From the NCBI GenBank assembly GCA_043746165.1, contig JAYTRM010000191.1:1-46525 (forward strand): DNA of 46,525 nucleotides, read 5' to 3'. The notes below the pieces were generated by a model. It worked only from the letters and a program-made list of their open reading frames with translations. It was not told where the DNA came from and searched no databases. Both the position numbers and the translations under genes were made by a program. Below, piece after piece: positions 2,478-46,525 of this stretch. The stretch comes from Bdellovibrionales bacterium. GTDB lineage: Bacteria; Bdellovibrionota; Bdellovibrionia; Bdellovibrionales; JAMPXM01. Every line of letters starts with the position of its first letter. The first letter of the stretch is position 1.

Positions 2478-5400
2478 TTATCGGCGCACTGTTGCCACGG
2501 CCTGAGGCTTCGACCGGTTTTGGCTAGGGTCCAGACGAGGAGGGACGAGCTTTTCCAAACGCAGAAGTTCGTCATAGATGTTGGGCCAGCTCAAGACATC
2601 CAGGCGAATAATGAGACGCATATCGGGAGTGAGCGAGTACTTCTTACTTTCGCGGCTTGCCAGGTTTACGACTTCAGCTGGCGGAAGCCGTGTCTGCTCG
2701 GTGAACGCGAGAGAAACAGACTTTGGTCCGGAGCTGAGATCACGAATGCCGAGTTCGCGGCAGTGATGGCGAATGAGCATCAATCCCATGAGATTGACGA
2801 CCTGTTCGGGAATGCGGCCGAACTGATCAGAAAGCTCAGATTCGATTCGATCCATGTCCGAAGGCTGCGCGATTTCGGTCATCGCTTTGTAATACGAAAG
2901 ACGGATGCGAATGTCCGGAATGTATTGATCAGGAATGAGCGCCGGAATGCGCACATTTATCTCGGGCTCAACTTGCTCCAGGCTCGGCTCGCCCTTAAGT
3001 TCTGAGATCGCCTGCTGCAAAAGCTCGAGGTACATTTCGTAGCCGACGGCATCGATTTGGCCTGACTGATCTTCACCGAGAATATTTCCCGATCCGCGAA
3101 GTTCTAAATCATGATGCGCGATACGGATACCACTTCCGAGAGCGGTATTTTCTTGAATCACCTTCAGGCGCTCTTGAGCGTCTTTTTCAATGCGCTTGTG
3201 CGCCGGAATTAAGAGGTAGCAATACGCACGCTCTTTGCTTCGTCCGACCCGGCCGCGCAGTTGGTAAAGCTGACTCAGGCCCAACTGATGAGCATTGTCG
3301 ATGAACATCGTATTGGCGCGAGGGTTGTCAATGCCCGATTCAATGATCGTCGTGCAAACCAAGACGTCGATTTGATGGTGATAGAAAGCGACCATCACTT
3401 CTTCGAGCTCGCCTTCATCCATCTGCCCGTGACCGATGCGGATCCGCGCATGCGGCACGATCTGGCGAATTTCGTCTGCAACACCTTGAATACTCTGCAC
3501 GCGGTTGTGCAGGTAAAAAACCTGCCCTCCGCGCGCGATTTCCGCTTCGATCGCCTTGCGTACGGTCTCGGGATCGTACCGGGTCACGAACGTTCGAGTT
3601 GGCAAGCGATCAACTGGCGCAGTGTTGATAATGCTCAGGTCGCGCATTCCAACGAGTGACATATTCAGGGTTCTCGGAATTGGTGTCGCCGAAAGCGTCA
3701 ACGTGTCGATAGCCGTGCGCATCTTTTTTATACGCTCTTTGTGAATCACACCAAAACGCTGCTCTTCATCGACGATCAAGAGACCGAGATCCTTAAACAC
3801 AACGTCCTTGCTGAGTAGACGATGCGTGCCGATGACGATGTCGATTTGGCCGTCCTTAGCCTCGGCTAAAGTTTTGCGCACATCTGCTGGAGAGACGAAG
3901 CGATTCAAGGCGCGAATCTTCACGGGCCAATTTTTAAACCGGCGCTGAAATGTTTCTAAATGCTGAAAACTCAAAACTGTGGTCGGCGCGAGCACCGCAA
4001 TCTGTTTTTGTCCCTCGATCGCTTTAAATGCCGCGCGCATCGCCACTTCTGTTTTACCAAAGCCGACATCGCCGCAAACCAGCCGATCCATGGGTTTATC
4101 CGACGTCATATCGCCAACGATATCGTCAACGGCTTTGAGCTGATCGATCGTCTCGTCATACGGAAACGCGCCTTCAAATTTCGCAAAATCATCGTCGTTG
4201 CGTGGAAACGAAGGTCTGCGAATTTGGCTACGTTTGGCGTAGAGCTCGAGCAGTTCGGCGGCAAGTTCGCGCAGATGACCGCGAACGCGGATTTTGGTCT
4301 TTTGCCACTGAGTGCCGCCAAGTTTGTCGATCAAGTGAGAGCCGCGCGGTCCCGAATATTTTTGAATCTGGGCGATCCGGTAGATCGGCAGGTACAGCTT
4401 GTCGCCGTCTTTATAAGAAAGCGCGATGAATTCGGCCTCAATGCCCGCAATCGGCATCACTTTAAGACCGTCGTAAATTCCGATTCCATGCGCCACATGA
4501 ACAATCGCGTCGCCGGGATTGAGATCGGCAAAACTCAGTGCGCCCGCGCGTTGCTCGAGCGTACCTGCAGCCTTGTGCTCACGCCTTCGATGTTGTTTTT
4601 TTCCAAAGAAATCTTCGTCACGAATAAAAATTAGATTTTCATCGGTGAGCCGCAAGCTTTCGTTTAAGCCTCGAGGCACAATGTGGATGACCTGAGGGTC
4701 GCTTTCCTGCAGAGCCGCCCAGCTTGCCAGGTCAAAGTCGGCCTCCGCAACGAGAGACGCCCGAAAACGGCTGCGTTCAAAAAATGCTGTTAACCGTTGG
4801 CACTGTGCTTGAGTTGCGGCCGCTACCAAAACCGTGGCACCAGACTCGCGCCATTTGTGCACTCGCATGAGCATCGCATCGAGCGCATCTGCCGGATTGG
4901 CCGGTGGAGCAAACCGCAAATCCTGCGAAGCGACCTGCACCGCGCGGTCGTTGGTCGATTCACGGGCGCTCGGATCTTCGCCGAATGTGGCGAACTCAAC
5001 TTTCGAAAATGACATTGTAAAGCGCACGTGATCGCGCGGAAGGCTTTCAAATTTGCCGTAGAGATTGAGCGGCGTGGGCCGAATCACCAAATCTTGCGCC
5101 TCGGCAAATTCCTTGAGCAGCGACTCGTGAAGGGCATCGGCCTCACGCTCGATTTCGGAAAGATTTAAAAGCCATAAATTGAGACCCTGGGATCTGAAAT
5201 GATCGATGGGAAAGGTAAATTCCGGCTCACATGAGCCGATGAGAAAGTCGACACCGGAAAAATACTGGCCCTGCGCGAGTGCCGTCTGAATGGATTCGCG
5301 ATCTTCTTGATCGACTTCGCGCCCGCGGCAACTTGCCTGGAACTCGAGCGAAGCCCGTTGGCGAACATCGTCATCAAAAATAACTTCACGGGCCGGCAAA

Positions 5401-18028: not shown

Positions 18029-20449
18029 TTAAGCGGCTGACGCTGCTGCCGCGTCCTTCGGCTTTTTTCCGCCTTTGTTGGTCGGACCGGTGCGCTTGCT
18101 CTTACCTAGTTTCTCTTCGAGGGCGAGAGCGAGAACTTCGTCCAAATGCTCAACAAAAATGAAGGTCAGTTGCTTTTTGAATTCTTCCGGAATCTCCGCG
18201 ACATCCTTTTGGTTTTGGAAAGGAACGATCACGGTCTTCACACCCTGCTGCAAGGCCGCAAGGGCTTTTTCTTTTATTCCGCCAATCGGCAGTACCCGGC
18301 CTTGAAGAGTCACCTCTCCCGTCATGGCGACATCGGCGCGAACCGGGGTGTCGGTCATTAAACTGATCAGTGCCGTAGCCATCGTGATACCCGCTGACGG
18401 TCCATCTTTAGGAATCGAACCGGCCGGCATGTGGATGTGGACCGTCCAGTTTTCGCTCCAGTCCTCGGGAATGCCGAAGTCTTTCGCGTTGGCGCGAGCG
18501 TAGCTCATTGCTGCCGTCGCAGATTCTTTCATGACGTCGCCCATTTGACCGGTGAGTACCAGGCCGCCTTTACCCTTCATTTTGAGGGCTTCGACGTACA
18601 GAACTTCTCCGCCCGCTTGGGTCCATGCAAGACCCGTCGCGATACCGATTTGATTCTCTTTGAGTTTCTCGTCGCGCAAATATTTTGGCGCACCCAGGAG
18701 TTCAGAGACTTTATCAGCCGTGATCACAATTTTCTCTTTGTTGCCGATCACTTTCATTTTAGCGACCTTGCGGCACAAAGACCCGACCTCGCGCTCCAAG
18801 TTTCTGAGACCCGCTTCGCGAGTGTAGTGACCGATGAGGTATTTTAGACCGTCATCTGTAAACTCGATCTCTTGATCATTGATCCCGTTATTTTCCATCT
18901 GTCTTTCGAGCAAATGTTTTTTCGTGATCAACAACTTATCATTCTCTGTGTATCCCGAGATGTGGATGAGCTCCATTCGATCGCGAAGAGCGGCGGGAAT
19001 ATTTTCCACCACGTTTGCTGTCGCGATAAAGAGAGCGTTGCTCAAGTTGAAGTCGACGTTGAGGTAGTTATCTCGGAACGCGTGGTTCTGTTCGGGGTCG
19101 AGAACCTCGAGCATCGCTGCCGACGGATCACCGCGGAAATCTGAGCCGAGTTTGTCGATCTCATCTAACACGATCACTGGATTATTGGTTTTAATCTGTT
19201 TCAGTGCCTGCACGACTTTTCCGGGCATGGCGCCGACATACGTACGGCGATGACCGCGAATTTCGGCTTCATCCTTCACTCCACCGAGAGCGATCCGGAA
19301 GTATTCGCGTCCCATCGAGCGGGCGATCGATTTACCGAGCGAAGTTTTTCCCACCCCTGGAGGTCCGCAGAAACACAGGATCGGACCTTTGAGATCTTTG
19401 GGCTTAAGCTTCCGAACCGCAAGGAATTCAAGGATACGATCTTTCACTTTGTTTAAGTCATAATGATCATCATCAAGAATTTGCTGCGCGTGATTGATGT
19501 CGAGATTGTCCTCAGAATGCTTGTTCCATGGCAGATCGACCATCCAGTCGAGGTACGTACGAACCATCGAGGCTTCAGACGCATCAGGATGCATCCTCTC
19601 GAGGCGCCCAAGCTGTTTCAAAGCTTCGGTTAAAACTGTCTCGGGCATCCCGGCGTCGGTGATTTTCTGACGGAGTTCTTCCATCTCTTCACCTTTGGAA
19701 TCTTGCTCACCAAGCTCAGACTTTATAGCGCGCATTTGCTCGCGCAAGAAGTACTCACGCTGTGATTTTGACATTTCGTCTTTAGCCGTGTTGCGAATGC
19801 GGGCTTGCATCTGCAGGACTTCAAGTTCATTAGCTAAGATTTCATTTACCAATTGCAAGCGCTGCTTCGGCTGCGAAGTCTCGAGCACTCGTTGCGCGTC
19901 TGAGACTTTAAGTCCGAGGTTCGAAGCAATCAAATCCGCGAGGCGACCCGGATCTGTGACGTCATCGAGAATCAAAAGAATATCCGGCGACAGCATGCGG
20001 CCGAGCGCGATGATTTTCTCGAGTTGTTCGCGGGCATTGCGAATCATCGCTTCGTACTCCACCGGAGCCCCGGGAAGTTCAGAGTCAGCGACTTTTTCAA
20101 CGGCGACTTCGAAGTTCGGCGACGATTTCAAATAGCGTTTGATGCGCCCTTTGGCTTCGCCTTGGATGAGGATCTTCACCCGGCCATCCGCGAGTTTGCG
20201 CATGCGCATGATCCGCGCGATCGTGCCAGTGGTGTAGATGGTCTCTTCCGTCGGATTCTCTTCGGTGATCTCTTTTTGAGAGGCCAGAAAGATAAGACGG
20301 TTTTTCGCCAGCGCCTCTTCGACCGAGCGGATCGAAGCCTCTCGCCCAACAAAGAGCGGAAGAATCATGTACGGGAATACGACAATGTCGCGTACAGGAA
20401 GCATTGGAAGAGTTTCAGGGATCTCGGTCACTTTATCGTCAAAAGCCAT
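18029..20449 (-). CDS. lon: ATP-dependent protease La
   Basis: Lon N-domain, GPPGVGKTS, HRRTYVGAMPG, PKDGPSAG (catalytic Ser), GGIKEK. Confidence 0.99.
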   Translation of the reverse strand: MAFDDKVTEIPETLPMLPVRDIVVFPYMILPLFVGREASIRSVEEALAKNRLIFLASQKEITEENPTEETIYTTGTIARIMRMRKLADGRVKILIQGEAKGRIKRYLKSSPNFEVAVEKVADSELPGAPVEYEAMIRNAREQLEKIIALGRMLSPDILLILDDVTDPGRLADLIASNLGLKVSDAQRVLETSQPKQRLQLVNEILANELEVLQMQARIRNTAKDEMSKSQREYFLREQMRAIKSELGEQDSKGEEMEELRQKITDAGMPETVLTEALKQLGRLERMHPDASEASMVRTYLDWMVDLPWNKHSEDNLDINHAQQILDDDHYDLNKVKDRILEFLAVRKLKPKDLKGPILCFCGPPGVGKTSLGKSIARSMGREYFRIALGGVKDEAEIRGHRRTYVGAMPGKVVQALKQIKTNNPVIVLDEIDKLGSDFRGDPSAAMLEVLDPEQNHAFRDNYLNVDFNLSNALFIATANVVENIPAALRDRMELIHISGYTENDKLLITKKHLLERQMENNGINDQEIEFTDDGLKYLIGHYTREAGLRNLEREVGSLCRKVAKMKVIGNKEKIVITADKVSELLGAPKYLRDEKLKENQIGIATGLAWTQAGGEVLYVEALKMKGKGGLVLTGQMGDVMKESATAAMSYARANAKDFGIPEDWSENWTVHIHMPAGSIPKDGPSAGITMATALISLMTDTPVRADVAMTGEVTLQGRVLPIGGIKEKALAALQQGVKTVIVPFQNQKDVAEIPEEFKKQLTFIFVEHLDEVLALALEEKLGKSKRTGPTNKGGKKPKDAAAASAA

Positions 20450-42132: not shown

Positions 42133-43509
42133 ATGACGAAAAAAAGATTGTTCTTCGTACTCATCGCACTTTGCGTCTCCACTCATTTGACGGGTTGCAG
42201 TTCGAGCGACTCCAAAGATGACGATTCAGCTGACTCCGCCTCCACCGAAGGTGGACAGGACGGAGACTTCGCGCAGGATGACGGCGGGGCTGGTAGCCCG
42301 CAGGATCAAATCGCGCAAGATGACACGGCTAAAAAAAGCGACGAGGCTACTCCTCAAGATAACGGCCAAGACTTGGCTCTTGATGGGCAAGCTAAGGACG
42401 CTGGGAAAAAAGTAGCCGACGCAGCTAAGGATGACCTCTCTTTAAATGATGGGCTTCCGGACCAGGCGCCCGCAGCAGATCAAGCAAAGACTGCTGCGAT
42501 AAAAGCTGAAGAAGCAGTAGCACCGGTTGCGGACGGCAAAGCTGAGCAAGCCTCAAGCGCGCCTCCAGCAACTGAGGCGCCAAAAGACGAGGCCGCAGCA
42601 GGTGCCGCTCCTCCGTCAGAAGGAATGGCTGCAGCTGCTCCGGCTGAGGAAAAACCCAAGGCGAACAATTCGCTTCAAAAAGCTAAAGAAGCAGCATTTG
42701 ATTCAGGTGGCACGCTGCTAAACCGGGTTTATATTGGTCGGGCTAATGACACCGTTAAAGGCGTCAGCGAGCGACTCTACGGTAAAAATCGTCAGAAAGA
42801 TTTGAAGGCTTGGAACAGCTTTCTTAAGCGCGGAGTAAAAGTCGGCGACAAAATTTATTATCAATCTCCAACAGCGCCCGATGATCAAAAGATGTTGACC
42901 TACTTTGAGGAAATGAATATTCCGCCGCAGATTTATACGGCCAAAGAAGGCGACAATATTCGCTCAGTTGCAACGACCCTACTTGGTGACAAAGATAGCT
43001 GGAAAGAAGTTTGGGAAACCAACGCTGGTGTGGAGTCGAAAGCTTCCATCGCAGCCGGAACCGAGCTTAAGTACTGGCCCGACAGCGCCCTCAGCGCGGC
43101 GGCTGCGCCCCCGGCGGGCAACGAAGCTCCCGGTGGCAAAGACGTAGCTATGAATACTCCGCCGGACTCGAATGTGGCACCACCGAACCCTGACACGGGC
43201 GCCCCTTCGATGACGCCACCTGCGCCAGCTTCAACTCCAGATAAACCGACGGCCGCCATGGGAACTGCCGGCGCTCCGCCAGTGGAAGCGCCGCCGCCGC
43301 CACCACCTCCACCGCCGCCACCACCACCGCCTCCGGAGCAGCCGAAGCCGATGAAAAAGATCGTAGCAAAGGAAGACCCTTCCAGCGATCCCGACCAGAT
43401 GATGATGATTGGAATTGGAGCGATTTTGATTACGGCAGCTGGTGTCTTGTTCTTTGTCCTCAAGAGAAATCGGGCAAAGCGTGTTGACCTAAGCCAAACC
43501 CAAGTCTAA
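42133..43509 (+). CDS. lipoprotein with acidic IDR, LysM-like domains, poly-Pro linker and C-terminal TM helix
   Basis: LTGC lipobox; YTAKEGDNIRSVA..LG...WKEVWETN LysM-like unit plus a second degenerate one; P15; MMMIGIGAILITAAGVLFFVL-KRNRAKR. Confidence 0.85.
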   Translation: MTKKRLFFVLIALCVSTHLTGCSSSDSKDDDSADSASTEGGQDGDFAQDDGGAGSPQDQIAQDDTAKKSDEATPQDNGQDLALDGQAKDAGKKVADAAKDDLSLNDGLPDQAPAADQAKTAAIKAEEAVAPVADGKAEQASSAPPATEAPKDEAAAGAAPPSEGMAAAAPAEEKPKANNSLQKAKEAAFDSGGTLLNRVYIGRANDTVKGVSERLYGKNRQKDLKAWNSFLKRGVKVGDKIYYQSPTAPDDQKMLTYFEEMNIPPQIYTAKEGDNIRSVATTLLGDKDSWKEVWETNAGVESKASIAAGTELKYWPDSALSAAAAPPAGNEAPGGKDVAMNTPPDSNVAPPNPDTGAPSMTPPAPASTPDKPTAAMGTAGAPPVEAPPPPPPPPPPPPPPPEQPKPMKKIVAKEDPSSDPDQMMMIGIGAILITAAGVLFFVLKRNRAKRVDLSQTQV

Positions 43510-43556
43510 GTCGTGAAACCCGCCGCTCAAGCTGCGGGGGTCAGAATAAAGAGAGT

Positions 43557-43581
43557 CAAAAGGCCCGAACAGGGCCTTTTG
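43557..43581. terminator. bidirectional terminator-like hairpin after the LysM gene
   Basis: CAAAAGGCCC-GAACA-GGGCCTTTTG. Confidence 0.8.
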
Positions 43582-43583
43582 CA

Positions 43584-43754
43584 TTTTGTAAACTGCCCCC
43601 TTACACTGTGTTGCGAGCTACCGGTGATATTAGGATGCCGGCAGAGGAAACGGGCGTTTGTCCCCTGAGAGTTACCAGAATCTAGTCGTTTGCTGGCGAT
43701 TGACTCTCGAACGTAACTCTTCACTTGCAACACAATAAGGGGCCAGTTTCAAAA
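43584..43754 (+). ncRNA. candidate structured ncRNA or MITE-like element (long closing stem plus three hairpins)
   Basis: ~30-bp imperfect terminal inverted repeat enclosing three abutting hairpins; several G-U pairs work only on the + strand. Confidence 0.5.
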
Positions 43755-43756
43755 GC

Positions 43757-43780
43757 AAAAGGCCCTTTGCAGGGCCTTTT
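43757..43780. terminator. bidirectional terminator-like hairpin after the PilZ gene
   Basis: AAAAGGCCCT-TTGC-AGGGCCTTTT, perfect 10-bp stem. Confidence 0.82.
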
Positions 43781-43818
43781 CACCTTTGGGGCGATGTGGG
43801 TTTTTGAGAAATTAAAGA

Positions 43819-44187
43819 TCAGCCGGTTTGTTTAAAGATGTCGTCGAGAACAGTGCGACGGTTTTCGCGCTTGCTCTCGACGAAGTACATCAAGTCATCG
43901 ACAATTTGAACGTCTCGGTTGTTGGTCGGATTGAATTTGATCCCTGAGCCTTGGGGGCTCGACCATATAATGGAGGCGCCAATCTTGCGTACGCGGCCGC
44001 CGACCTTGAAGGTAATGGCAACTTTGTCTCCCTTTTTAAGGGCTTCGTTCACGTGCTCCAGGAAGGCACCCGAGATACTGATATTCTTGAGTTGGCCTGT
44101 ATCGTTAGAGCGGCCATAACTCTTGCGATACTCAATCTCAAGTTTGAGAGGTATGCGCGGGGACGGATTCGTTTCGCTTGCGTTCAT
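43819..44187 (-). CDS. stand-alone PilZ-domain protein
   Basis: PRIPLKL, NISISGAFL (D/NxSxxG), GIKF; GGAGG SD. Confidence 0.88.
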   Translation of the reverse strand: MNASETNPSPRIPLKLEIEYRKSYGRSNDTGQLKNISISGAFLEHVNEALKKGDKVAITFKVGGRVRKIGASIIWSSPQGSGIKFNPTNNRDVQIVDDLMYFVESKRENRRTVLDDIFKQTG

Positions 44188-44747: not shown

Positions 44748-46525
44748 GTGTCAGATGCCAATGAGCCAAGCGCCCCCAAACCGGTAAGATCCAAAACAAC
44801 AGCAGCTGAAAGCAACGAGGGAAATTCCTCCTCTCCACCTGCGGTGCAGAGCGTTTCCGAAGGTGCTGGTCGAGCGGAGTCTCCCTCCGCAGTCCACCCG
44901 CAAAACTCTGCACCTCGCGAACACTCGGGCGAAGAAGGTAGTAGACCTGAGCGTCCTCCTCAAGAGCGGCCGCAGTACAGTGGCGGTGGCGAAAGAAAAC
45001 GAACATTCAAAGATAAACGCCACAGTGGTCCGCGCGGTGACGGCGGGGGACCAGGAAATGGATCGGGCGGGCCATCCTACGGTGGATCAGGTGGTGGACC
45101 GGGCGGCGGATCTGCCAACGGTAAATATCGTGACCGGCACCAAGGTGGTGGCGGCGGCGGTGGCGGTGGCCGTGATCGCCAAAATCAGGGTCGTGATCGC
45201 TATGGTCAACAAAACGGTGGCCATCATCGCGATATGATGATGGATGATCCGGTTGATATTCCGCCGGTTTCGGATGCCGACCTTTCGGCAATCGAACTGA
45301 GTGAAGCAGATCGAACCGATCTGACCTCAAAAGGCTTGAAATCCAAAAAGATCGAAGAGCTGACCGCGCTCGCGGGCAAGCTGATGATCGAAAACGCAGC
45401 CGGACTTCGTCGTCAGGATTTGGTTTTCGAAATTCTCAAGCGTGCGGCGCGTCTCGGCGATATTTATGGCAACGGCGTTCTCGAAATTCTTCCTGATGGC
45501 TATGGCTTCTTGCGATCGCCTGACTACAACTATCTTCCAGGACCGGATGACATTTACGTTAGCCCCTCGCAAATTCGCCGTTTCGGCCTGCGCACCGGCG
45601 ATACGGTAAGCGGTACGGTTCGTCCTCCCAAGGAAGGCGAGCGTTACTTTGCACTTTTGAAGGTCGAGAATCTCAACCATGAGGCTCCCGAAAAAGCGCG
45701 TGAGAAAATTCTTTTTGATAACTTGACGCCACTTTATCCCGAAGATCGCCTGAAGCTCGAACATTTACCGAACGAGTACACCACGCGCGTCGTGGATCTG
45801 ATGTCTCCGCTCGGCAAAGGGCAACGAGCTCTGATCGTCGCTCCTCCACGAACTGGTAAAACAGTTCTTATGCAGAATATTGCCAACGCGATTTCGGCAA
45901 ATCATCCCGAAGTGAAGTTGATTGTTCTGCTGATCGACGAACGTCCCGAAGAAGTGACTGACATGCTCCGCAACGTCAAAGGTGAAGTCATCAGCTCGAC
46001 CTTTGATGAACCGCCCACGCGTCACGTGCAAGTGGCCGAGATGGTCATCGAAAAAGCGAAGCGTCTTGTGGAACACAAGCATGACGTCGTGATCTTGCTC
46101 GACTCGATCACGCGCCTCGCTCGCGCCTACAATACAGTGGTTCCGCCATCGGGCAAAATTCTGTCCGGCGGTGTCGACTCCAACGCTCTTCACAAGCCGA
46201 AGCGTTTCTTCGGAGCCGCTCGAAATATCGAAGAGGGTGGAAGTCTCACGATCATTGCAACTGCGTTGATCGACACGGGCTCGCGCATGGACGAAGAGAT
46301 CTTCGAGGAGTTCAAAGGTACGGGTAACTCCGAAATTCACCTCGATCGCAAGTTGATGGAGAAGCGAATCTTCCCTTGTATGGACATCAATAAGTCGGGA
46401 ACTCGAAAAGAAGATCTCTTGGTCGAACGCGCGGATCTCAACCGCCTGTGGATTTTGCGCAAAGTTTTGGCACCCATGAACGTTGTGGATAGCATGGAGT
46501 TTTTGCTCGATAAACTGAGCGCAAC
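44748..46525 (+). CDS. rho: transcription termination factor Rho with a long disordered N-terminal extension (runs off the window)
   Basis: Absent from the ORF track because there is no stop in the window; GTG44748 after AAGGAG; translated by hand: [61 protein letters not shown]. Confidence 0.97.

Follow-up and report, generated by a model that had tools for sequence, protein, structure and literature searches.

Does the long inverted repeat that separates two convergent genes in a Bdellovibrionales genome represent a new structured RNA, or is it a mobile element? An earlier note on this DNA, made from the sequence alone, had described a single unannotated element with a long closing stem, a four-way junction, and twin terminators. 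It had left two readings standing: a structured non-coding RNA or switch, and a MITE with ends like those of the IS3 family. We evaluated these readings through searches of the element's own genome, of orthologous loci in related genomes, and of metagenomic contigs, and through folding of the element and its copies. The window (the whole stretch of DNA that was analysed, 46,525 nucleotides) is one contig, C191, of a genome of 3.3 Mb in 359 contigs, and related records are MAGs of the Bdellovibrionales or Pseudobdellovibrionaceae.

Locus and Neighboring Genes

The element occupies a gap of 309 nt between two convergent genes, an ORF of 458 aa and a PilZ-domain gene (Table 1). The 458-aa protein comprises a Pro-rich tract and a C-terminal membrane anchor that ends in RNRAKRVDLSQTQV before the stop, and no Pfam family was detected in it in a Pfam search. 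Its poly-proline tract is encoded by CCG/CCA-rich sequence (window positions 43290-43340) that draws hundreds of unrelated metagenome contigs in read/contig mapping, so that depth is inflated there. The PilZ gene is present as a single-copy ortholog in 29 of 35 family genomes (the genome under study, G000, being counted), and a gene for Rho lies beyond it at 44748-46523. The Rho protein has an N-terminal extension of ~195 aa ahead of its Rho_N domain (Pfam, 197-235), and this extension aligns poorly among relatives. Contigs of the two samples that are the probable source of the genome (X1 and X2) cover positions 43512-44150 with 0 differences, and none of them contains a joint that skips the element, as an empty site would.

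Table 1. Features of the locus, in window coordinates (a point marks a feature without assigned strand).
Feature	Position	Strand	Description or basis
458-aa upstream convergent gene	42133..43509	+	ORF list; outside the element, defines the locus
Hairpin 1	43557..43581	.	CAAAAGGCCC-GAACA-GGGCCTTTTG then CATTTTGT; terminator called on + and -
MITE copy, profile envelope	43585..43753	.	169 bp; nhmmer family
Element proper	~43589-43750	.	nAAACTG...CAGTTTn; by analogy with IS ends, boundaries from IS/MITE target duplications
Left TIR	43590..43617	+	AAACTGCCCCCTTACACTGTGTTGCGAG; arms and genome copies, same termini bound full IS copies
MITE interior	43618..43723	.	Motifs common to family members; fold not conserved
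Right TIR	43724..43749	-	Reverse complement AAACTGGCCCCTTATTGTGTTGCAAG; arms and genome copies
Spacer and hairpin 2	43750..43780	.	CAAAAG, then CAAAAGGCCC-TTTG-CAGGGCCTTTT; inverted duplicate of hairpin 1 with T-tail
PilZ-domain gene, downstream convergent	43819..44187	-	122 aa; PF07238, E 4.4e-09; outside the element

A Repeat Family in the Same Genome

The core of the element, which had been taken for a single unannotated feature, belongs to a repeat family. Searches of its own genome with blastn and nhmmer (two profile iterations, 31 rows on both strands) identified seven full-length loci. Six of these are 165–169 nt in length (C191, C249, C244, C44, C128, and C340), and the seventh is a long form of 326 bp (C9). 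About 10 truncated pieces were also identified (C4, C174, C6, C3, C247, C215, two in C37, and C288, the last one truncated by a contig end). The earlier note had proposed a BLASTN search of the genome as a means of distinguishing a MITE from a single-copy RNA, and the many copies recovered, on separate contigs, favor the MITE.

Mean column identity among the copies is 63%, with termini (AAACTGnCCCCTTACTGTGTTGC) that are nearly invariant. The TIRs are 28–36 bp in length and start with AAACTGnCCCCTTAC. The same start bounds unrelated interiors at C241:556-863 (308 bp) and C262:5829-6226 (398 bp), and occurs as solo ends as well. All 12 copies examined were intergenic by a crude call based on ORFs of ≥110 aa, two of them with overlapping frames that we take as chance, and a target duplication was identified at one of nine copies in this genome (C244, 8 bp).

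The copy in the window lacks coding capacity, being overlapped only by chance ORFs of 51 and 68 aa. Its interior carries motifs that recur in the family (GGAAAy..TTTGTC, CCAGAATCTAGTCGG, and CTCTCGAAC), and alignment shows these to be about as conserved as the TIRs, which neutral decay does not explain. These motifs may represent functional cargo or a host-factor site rather than the outcome of drift. An assignment of one interior motif, by eye, to an IHF site was dropped, as the fit to the consensus was imperfect.

Two further repeats were observed in this genome. One is a perfect palindrome of 44–46 nt, TCCTTCAGnAAnnnnGTAACCTATAGGTTACnnnnTTnCTGAAGGA, found at C215:7645-7690, C247:4960-5005, and C125:~20312-20360; its arms vary among copies yet stay perfectly complementary within each, and two of the three copies lie 8–12 nt from a truncated MITE or IS end. 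The other is a module of ~130 nt (containing AATCGGTCGCAG, then the palindrome TTCGGTTTrAACCGAA) within long MITE variants at C9:6701-7032, C174:2647-2857, C3:8200-8552, and C262:5829-6226. It is also found, adjoining a MITE or without one, at C6:33680-33760, C128:13984, C266:14740, and C336:3893. The module may represent a second, nested family of repeats or the ancestral long form, and Rfam returned nothing for it in the five loci that were scanned.

The Parent Insertion Sequence

The genome contains three pieces of a parent insertion sequence (IS), all located at contig ends; a complete copy is not assembled. Inward of the TIR at C294:2576 lies a C-terminal frame of 192 aa, with its stop directly against the TIR and its other side open to the end of the contig. 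At C44:1-527, a TIR and 70 nt precede the N-terminal 152 aa of a transposase (C44:1-456); this piece, truncated where the contig stops, carries two CxxC pairs as well as an HTH-like stretch and EVEFDDLETFEH. The third IS end, C234:1-129, holds a short transposase fragment and is likewise cut by a contig end. The TIRs of the MITE in the window are identical to these three IS ends at 21–27 of 36 positions (24–27 of 36 for the left TIR). Neither Pfam nor NCBIfam returned anything for the 192-aa C-terminal fragment. The N-terminal piece matched 1056 proteins among 1589 candidates at E ≤ 0.001. Most of the 120 homologs listed are 293–294 aa in length, and several among these 120 bear NCBI names, either 'transposase' of Bdellovibrio or 'IS1 family transposase'. 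The full-length member P0003 is present in 74 of the 201 genomes that were sampled from the order.

The TIR accompanies this transposase in other genomes. The 15-mer AAACTGnCCCCTTAC was found inverted at both ends of the ORF with ≤2 mismatches at 9 of 30 loci and with ≤4 mismatches at 20 of 30; by our own arithmetic, the chance of a match with ≤2 mismatches is ~8e-4 per end. IS copies delimited by these TIRs are 961–1108 bp long and encode a single transposase of 293 aa. Clean target duplications of 9 bp flank 4 of the 14 IS copies displayed (L055, L058, L069, and L073), and these place one more base outside AAACTG inside the element. The targets seen for IS and MITE copies are AT-rich (TTAGAAATT, TAATCTTTAA, and TAAAACTTA). 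No significant match was detected between the MITE interior and the parent IS loci, to which the family profile aligns only over the TIRs (terminal ~40 nt).

The ends of the element had been likened to those of the IS3 family. This attribution does not hold: no rve or HTH_Tnp_1 domain was found in the frames that abut the TIRs or in the full-length homologs, and the parent is not an IS3 element because no rve domain lies beside its TIRs. Instead, the best NCBIfam match of all three full-length proteins searched was NF033558 (transpos_IS1; E 2e-10 to 2.5e-11), which is sub-threshold at 41–44 bits against a cut-off of 100. No Pfam family scored above its cut-off on these proteins (HTH_Tnp_IS1 was at E 0.03–0.04). 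A profile of 16 transposase sequences was further compared by hhalign with InsA and InsB of Escherichia coli IS1A (K-12). The alignment with InsA (88.8% probability, E 2.5e-06, 79 columns) included both CxxC zinc-finger pairs and the HTH, and that with InsB, a single-sequence template of low sensitivity, gave 0.2% probability and E 0.36 over 20 columns. The core of the IS1A inverted repeat, CTGCCAACTTAC, matches the TIR (CTGCCCCCTTAC) at 10 of 12 positions and lies about as far from the tip, a likeness that is suggestive only. Target duplications of 8–9 bp are a trait of the IS1 family (ISfinder). Judged from the InsA-like N-terminus and the 9-bp duplications, the parent appears to be an IS1-like element, albeit a distant one.

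Orthologous Loci Lack the Element

The order of the 458-aa gene, PilZ, and Rho is kept at orthologous loci in the family, with an ortholog of the 458-aa gene adjacent at 16 of 19 loci and Rho at 15 of 19. When the MITE profile was searched against these 19 loci, all from other genera, there were 0 matches at E ≤ 1. In the closest of them, the genes are separated by ~80–100 nt that comprise one A-run, GC-hairpin, and T-run. A metagenome scan with PilZ recovered three loci only (L108–L110; 72–76% identity, other genera), and the element is absent from all three; the gap in L108 is ~70 nt, as compared to 309 nt in the window. In two of these three relatives the sole hairpin is AAAAGAAAAGGCCCC-loop-GGGGCCTTTTT, which is recognizable as hairpin 1 with its A-run.

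The subfamily itself was seen in this genome only. The core had no blastn match in 60 relatives, and a TIR-pair pattern for the ~160-bp form was not found in 34 other family genomes. The same pattern with a gap of 100–130 nt, which is too short for the copies of the present genome, was searched in 384 genomes of the order and identified only 154-bp MITEs in one genome (G058); absence of the 160-bp form is accordingly claimed for the 34 genomes only. The MITE of G058 is present in four copies that share the termini but not the interior of the family described here, with target duplications of 9–10 bp in two of the four. An exact-pattern scan of contigs located the TIR in 10 stretches of other Bdellovibrionales MAGs, where the TIRs alone, and not the interior, were matched. 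In another Bdellovibrionales MAG (L047, JAYTQQ010000191.1, positions 5094-5157), TIRs face each other ~64 bp apart with almost no interior.

The membership in a multi-copy family, the TIRs held in common with a transposase-bearing IS, the transposase frames beside those TIRs, the 9-bp duplications that flank copies of both IS and MITE, and the lack of the element at orthologous loci all point to the same origin. We consider it highly probable that positions 43585-43753 are a non-coding MITE copy of ~165 bp, bounded by the TIRs of a ~1-kb IS1-like IS of the Bdellovibrionales.

Twin Terminators and an Inverted Flank

The two hairpins that flank the MITE have arms of 10 nt that are each 100% complementary (43557-43566/43572-43581 and 43757-43766/43771-43780). 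Hairpin 1 is likely the ortholog of an ancestral single terminator that was bidirectional, and hairpin 2, which reads GGCCC-TGCAAA-GGGCC followed by TTTTGCTTTTG on the - strand, is the predicted terminator on the PilZ side. The sequence of the hairpins (AAAGGCCC..GGGCCTTT) occurs at only two sites in the 3.3-Mb genome, one on each side of the copy in the window. Aligned in inverted orientation, the two flanks match in 30 of 35 columns (score 43), and the match is contiguous to the ends of the element. Aligned directly they score 31, over the self-complementary hairpin only. The maximum score in 500 random pairs was 23. None of the 12 other copies has an inverted flank of this kind. The copy in the window has no target duplication, its flanks being inverted rather than direct with no 9-bp direct repeat. 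The terminators described earlier as twins, with inner strands whose pairing excludes terminator folding, are real, and the minimum free energy (MFE) structure does pair those inner strands; this exclusive pairing arises because the flank is an inverted duplication.

How might such a flank have arisen? We tentatively propose that the hairpin of the MITE seeded fold-back replication, which extended the palindrome through the terminator and restored a private terminator to pilZ; on the sequence in hand this is a possible course of events, and we hold it with something short of even confidence. The MITE, mobilized by a transposase presumed to act in trans through the TIRs, would have inserted into an AT-rich run between PilZ and a single bidirectional terminator that was once common to both genes. 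A later fold-back (template switch) at the hairpin of the element would have copied the left flank, comprising the T-tail and terminator hairpin, in inverted orientation to the right. The target duplication on the right would have been overwritten in this step and pilZ would have gained a terminator of its own; the lack of a target duplication at this copy would then be due to that overwriting. The loops of the two hairpins differ (GAACA in hairpin 1 and TTTGCA in hairpin 2), and therefore either the duplication is not recent or the proposal is wrong. If true, fold-back represents a route from the insertion of a transposon to a new functional terminator.

A simpler history, in which back-to-back terminators, one per gene, predate the insertion and the MITE landed in an AT-rich spacer between them, is in our judgment unlikely. 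It agrees with the AT-rich targets seen for both IS and MITE, and the spacer that it requires (TTTTGC(A)TTTTG/CAAAAGCAAAA) would be of the same kind. However, the syntenic loci that were read closely all have one hairpin rather than two identical ones, simple insertion leaves a 9-bp direct repeat in place of flanks that are inverted up to the ends of the element, and the hairpin sequence is found nowhere else in the genome.

Possible Recruitment of the Element by the Host

Correia, ERIC, and REP elements have been suggested to act as insulators or 3' stabilizers, and the hairpin-MITE-hairpin arrangement could similarly have been selected as a bidirectional transcription insulator or a stabilizer of mRNA 3' ends. 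Four of the 12 copies examined lie in gaps between convergent ORFs, and the copies in C340 and C44 occupy the whole of the gap; because they fill it exactly, these two necessarily supply the 3' end of each mRNA. In addition, the stem of the duplicated terminator is perfect though its loop has diverged, which suggests selection on the stem. Nevertheless, the terminators at the present locus are outside the element, which is itself unneeded for termination, and the 3' ends of genes are the least harmful sites for insertion, so that selection is not required to account for copies there. We regard domestication as quite improbable. With a terminator on each side, transcription of the element should be low, and the MITE is probably little transcribed and without a function of its own at this locus.

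At C340:2022-2188 and C44:1207-1372, the ORFs on either side have stops that touch or run into the TIR tips (in C340, TGATAG/AAACTG ... CAGTTT/CTA, with slashes at the tips).

Fold of the Element and Its Copies

The sequence contains every complementarity that had been claimed for it, the long closing stem and both hairpins included. Three pairs of arms were identified: 43558-43586/43751-43779 (29 nt, 79% complementary), 43585-43603/43736-43754 (19 nt, 84%), and 43607-43617/43724-43734 (11 nt, 91%). The 8-nt complementarity of AGAGTTAC and GTAACTCT is present, as is that of GAGAGTCAA and TTGACTCTC (9 nt), although by rough arithmetic a complement of the latter length is expected about once per ten such regions.

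As regards stability, a comparison with shuffled controls places the 235-nt stretch far beyond chance: on the + strand it folds with -109.1 kcal/mol (z -8.80), which none of 200 shuffles equaled. The - strand yields -112.5 kcal/mol (z -9.98). A preference for the + strand had been argued from G-U pairs, and this argument fails because the - strand folds at least as well and the MFE structures contain about the same number of G-U pairs (7 on + and 6 on -). Nor did the four-way junction of three abutting hairpins survive the comparison with shuffles. For the enclosed 100 nt (43621-43720), z is -0.5 on the + strand, where 62 of 200 shuffles reach the same stability, and -1.55 on the - strand. With the inner 100 nt at the level of shuffles, all of the excess stability therefore resides in the closing inverted repeat.

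Similar results were obtained when the MFE structure of the window copy was mapped onto the six full copies of the short form. The two closing helices were paired at 87% and 79% across the six copies, and both partners had changed in 10 of 32 pairs of helices 1 and 2. The six inner helices were paired at 33–70% with almost no compensatory change, and helices 4, 5, 6, and 8 showed no change on both sides among these six copies. Moreover, the MFE structure of the interior differs in each of the six, and the inner hairpins of the window copy are not kept elsewhere. RNAalifold retained essentially the closing stem alone for the six full copies and no structure whatever for 11 sequences that included truncated pieces. 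The co-variation of the arms is what would be observed, between subfamilies, in TIRs that are bound to match one transposase. The signal is that of an inverted repeat in DNA, not that of an RNA fold.

Consistent with the earlier note, which had matched the element to no RNA family, a search of the whole window against Rfam 15 returned 0 matches at the gathering score. A permissive search of 43300-44000 returned chance-level matches only (the best, on the terminator hairpin, scored 26 bits against 50), and five loci with other copies of the family had 0 matches at E ≤ 0.01.

A novel structured RNA or a switch resembling a riboswitch, read from the + strand, perhaps excised by RNase III and acting through competition between terminator and antiterminator, could draw on the very stable fold, the pairing of the inner strands of both hairpins, the conserved interior motifs, and the compensatory changes in the closing stem, yet we judge it extremely improbable, given the equal or greater stability of the - strand, a junction and inner helices that are neither more stable than shuffles nor kept among copies, the lack of an Rfam match, the transposon termini of a multi-copy element that is absent from orthologous loci, a stem covariation equal to that of matching TIRs, and a terminator that precedes the element from either side. 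The structure that resembles RNA is the expected product of a TIR element combined with an inverted duplication of its flank.

Discussion

The element between the 458-aa gene and pilZ is an ordinary genome parasite rather than a new class of RNA, and a false lead is thereby removed. The MITE family of the Bdellovibrionales and its IS1-like parent are not known to have been described; full-text literature searches returned no paper that deals with MITEs or IS1-family elements of Bdellovibrio. Screens for RNA motifs and annotation pipelines will go on flagging copies of this family as highly stable structures, and the TIR signature AAACTGnCCCCTTAC provides an aid to masking them. A single broader point comes from the inverted flank duplication, a natural extension of a palindrome beside a mobile element that apparently yielded a second terminator.

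MITEs of IS1-family insertion sequences are non-autonomous TIR elements that are mobilized in trans. One bacterial MITE that derives from an IS is MITEAba12 (PMC6382973). The present element resembles IS-derived MITEs in being ~165 bp in length, non-coding, multi-copy, and intergenic, with TIRs of a transposase-bearing IS and heterogeneous interiors, and it resembles IS1-derived MITEs in the 9-bp target duplications of family members. Unlike IS1-derived MITEs, its parent transposase is only distantly IS1-like, with a sub-threshold match to NF033558 and a catalytic half that is not alignable to InsB. The observation of the subfamily in one genome only and, at the window copy, an inverted flank duplication in place of a target duplication are further differences.

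The parent IS shares with E. coli IS1 an InsA-like zinc finger and HTH, the 9-bp duplication, a similar core of the inverted repeat, and a length of ~0.8–1.1 kb. It differs in having one ORF of 293 aa where IS1 has InsA and InsB with a frameshift, in the lack of a significant InsB match, and in its termini (nAAACTG as compared to GGTRATG in E. coli IS1).

Correia/NEMIS, ERIC, and REP/BIME elements are small palindromic repeats at the 3' ends of genes whose RNA hairpins may affect termination, stability, and RNase III processing. If transcribed, the MITE would be analogous to these elements in presenting a long, near-perfect hairpin at convergent 3' ends. In contrast to them, its termini tie it to an IS of the DDE type rather than, presumably, to a RAYT or some other mobilizer, and it is unrelated to them in sequence.
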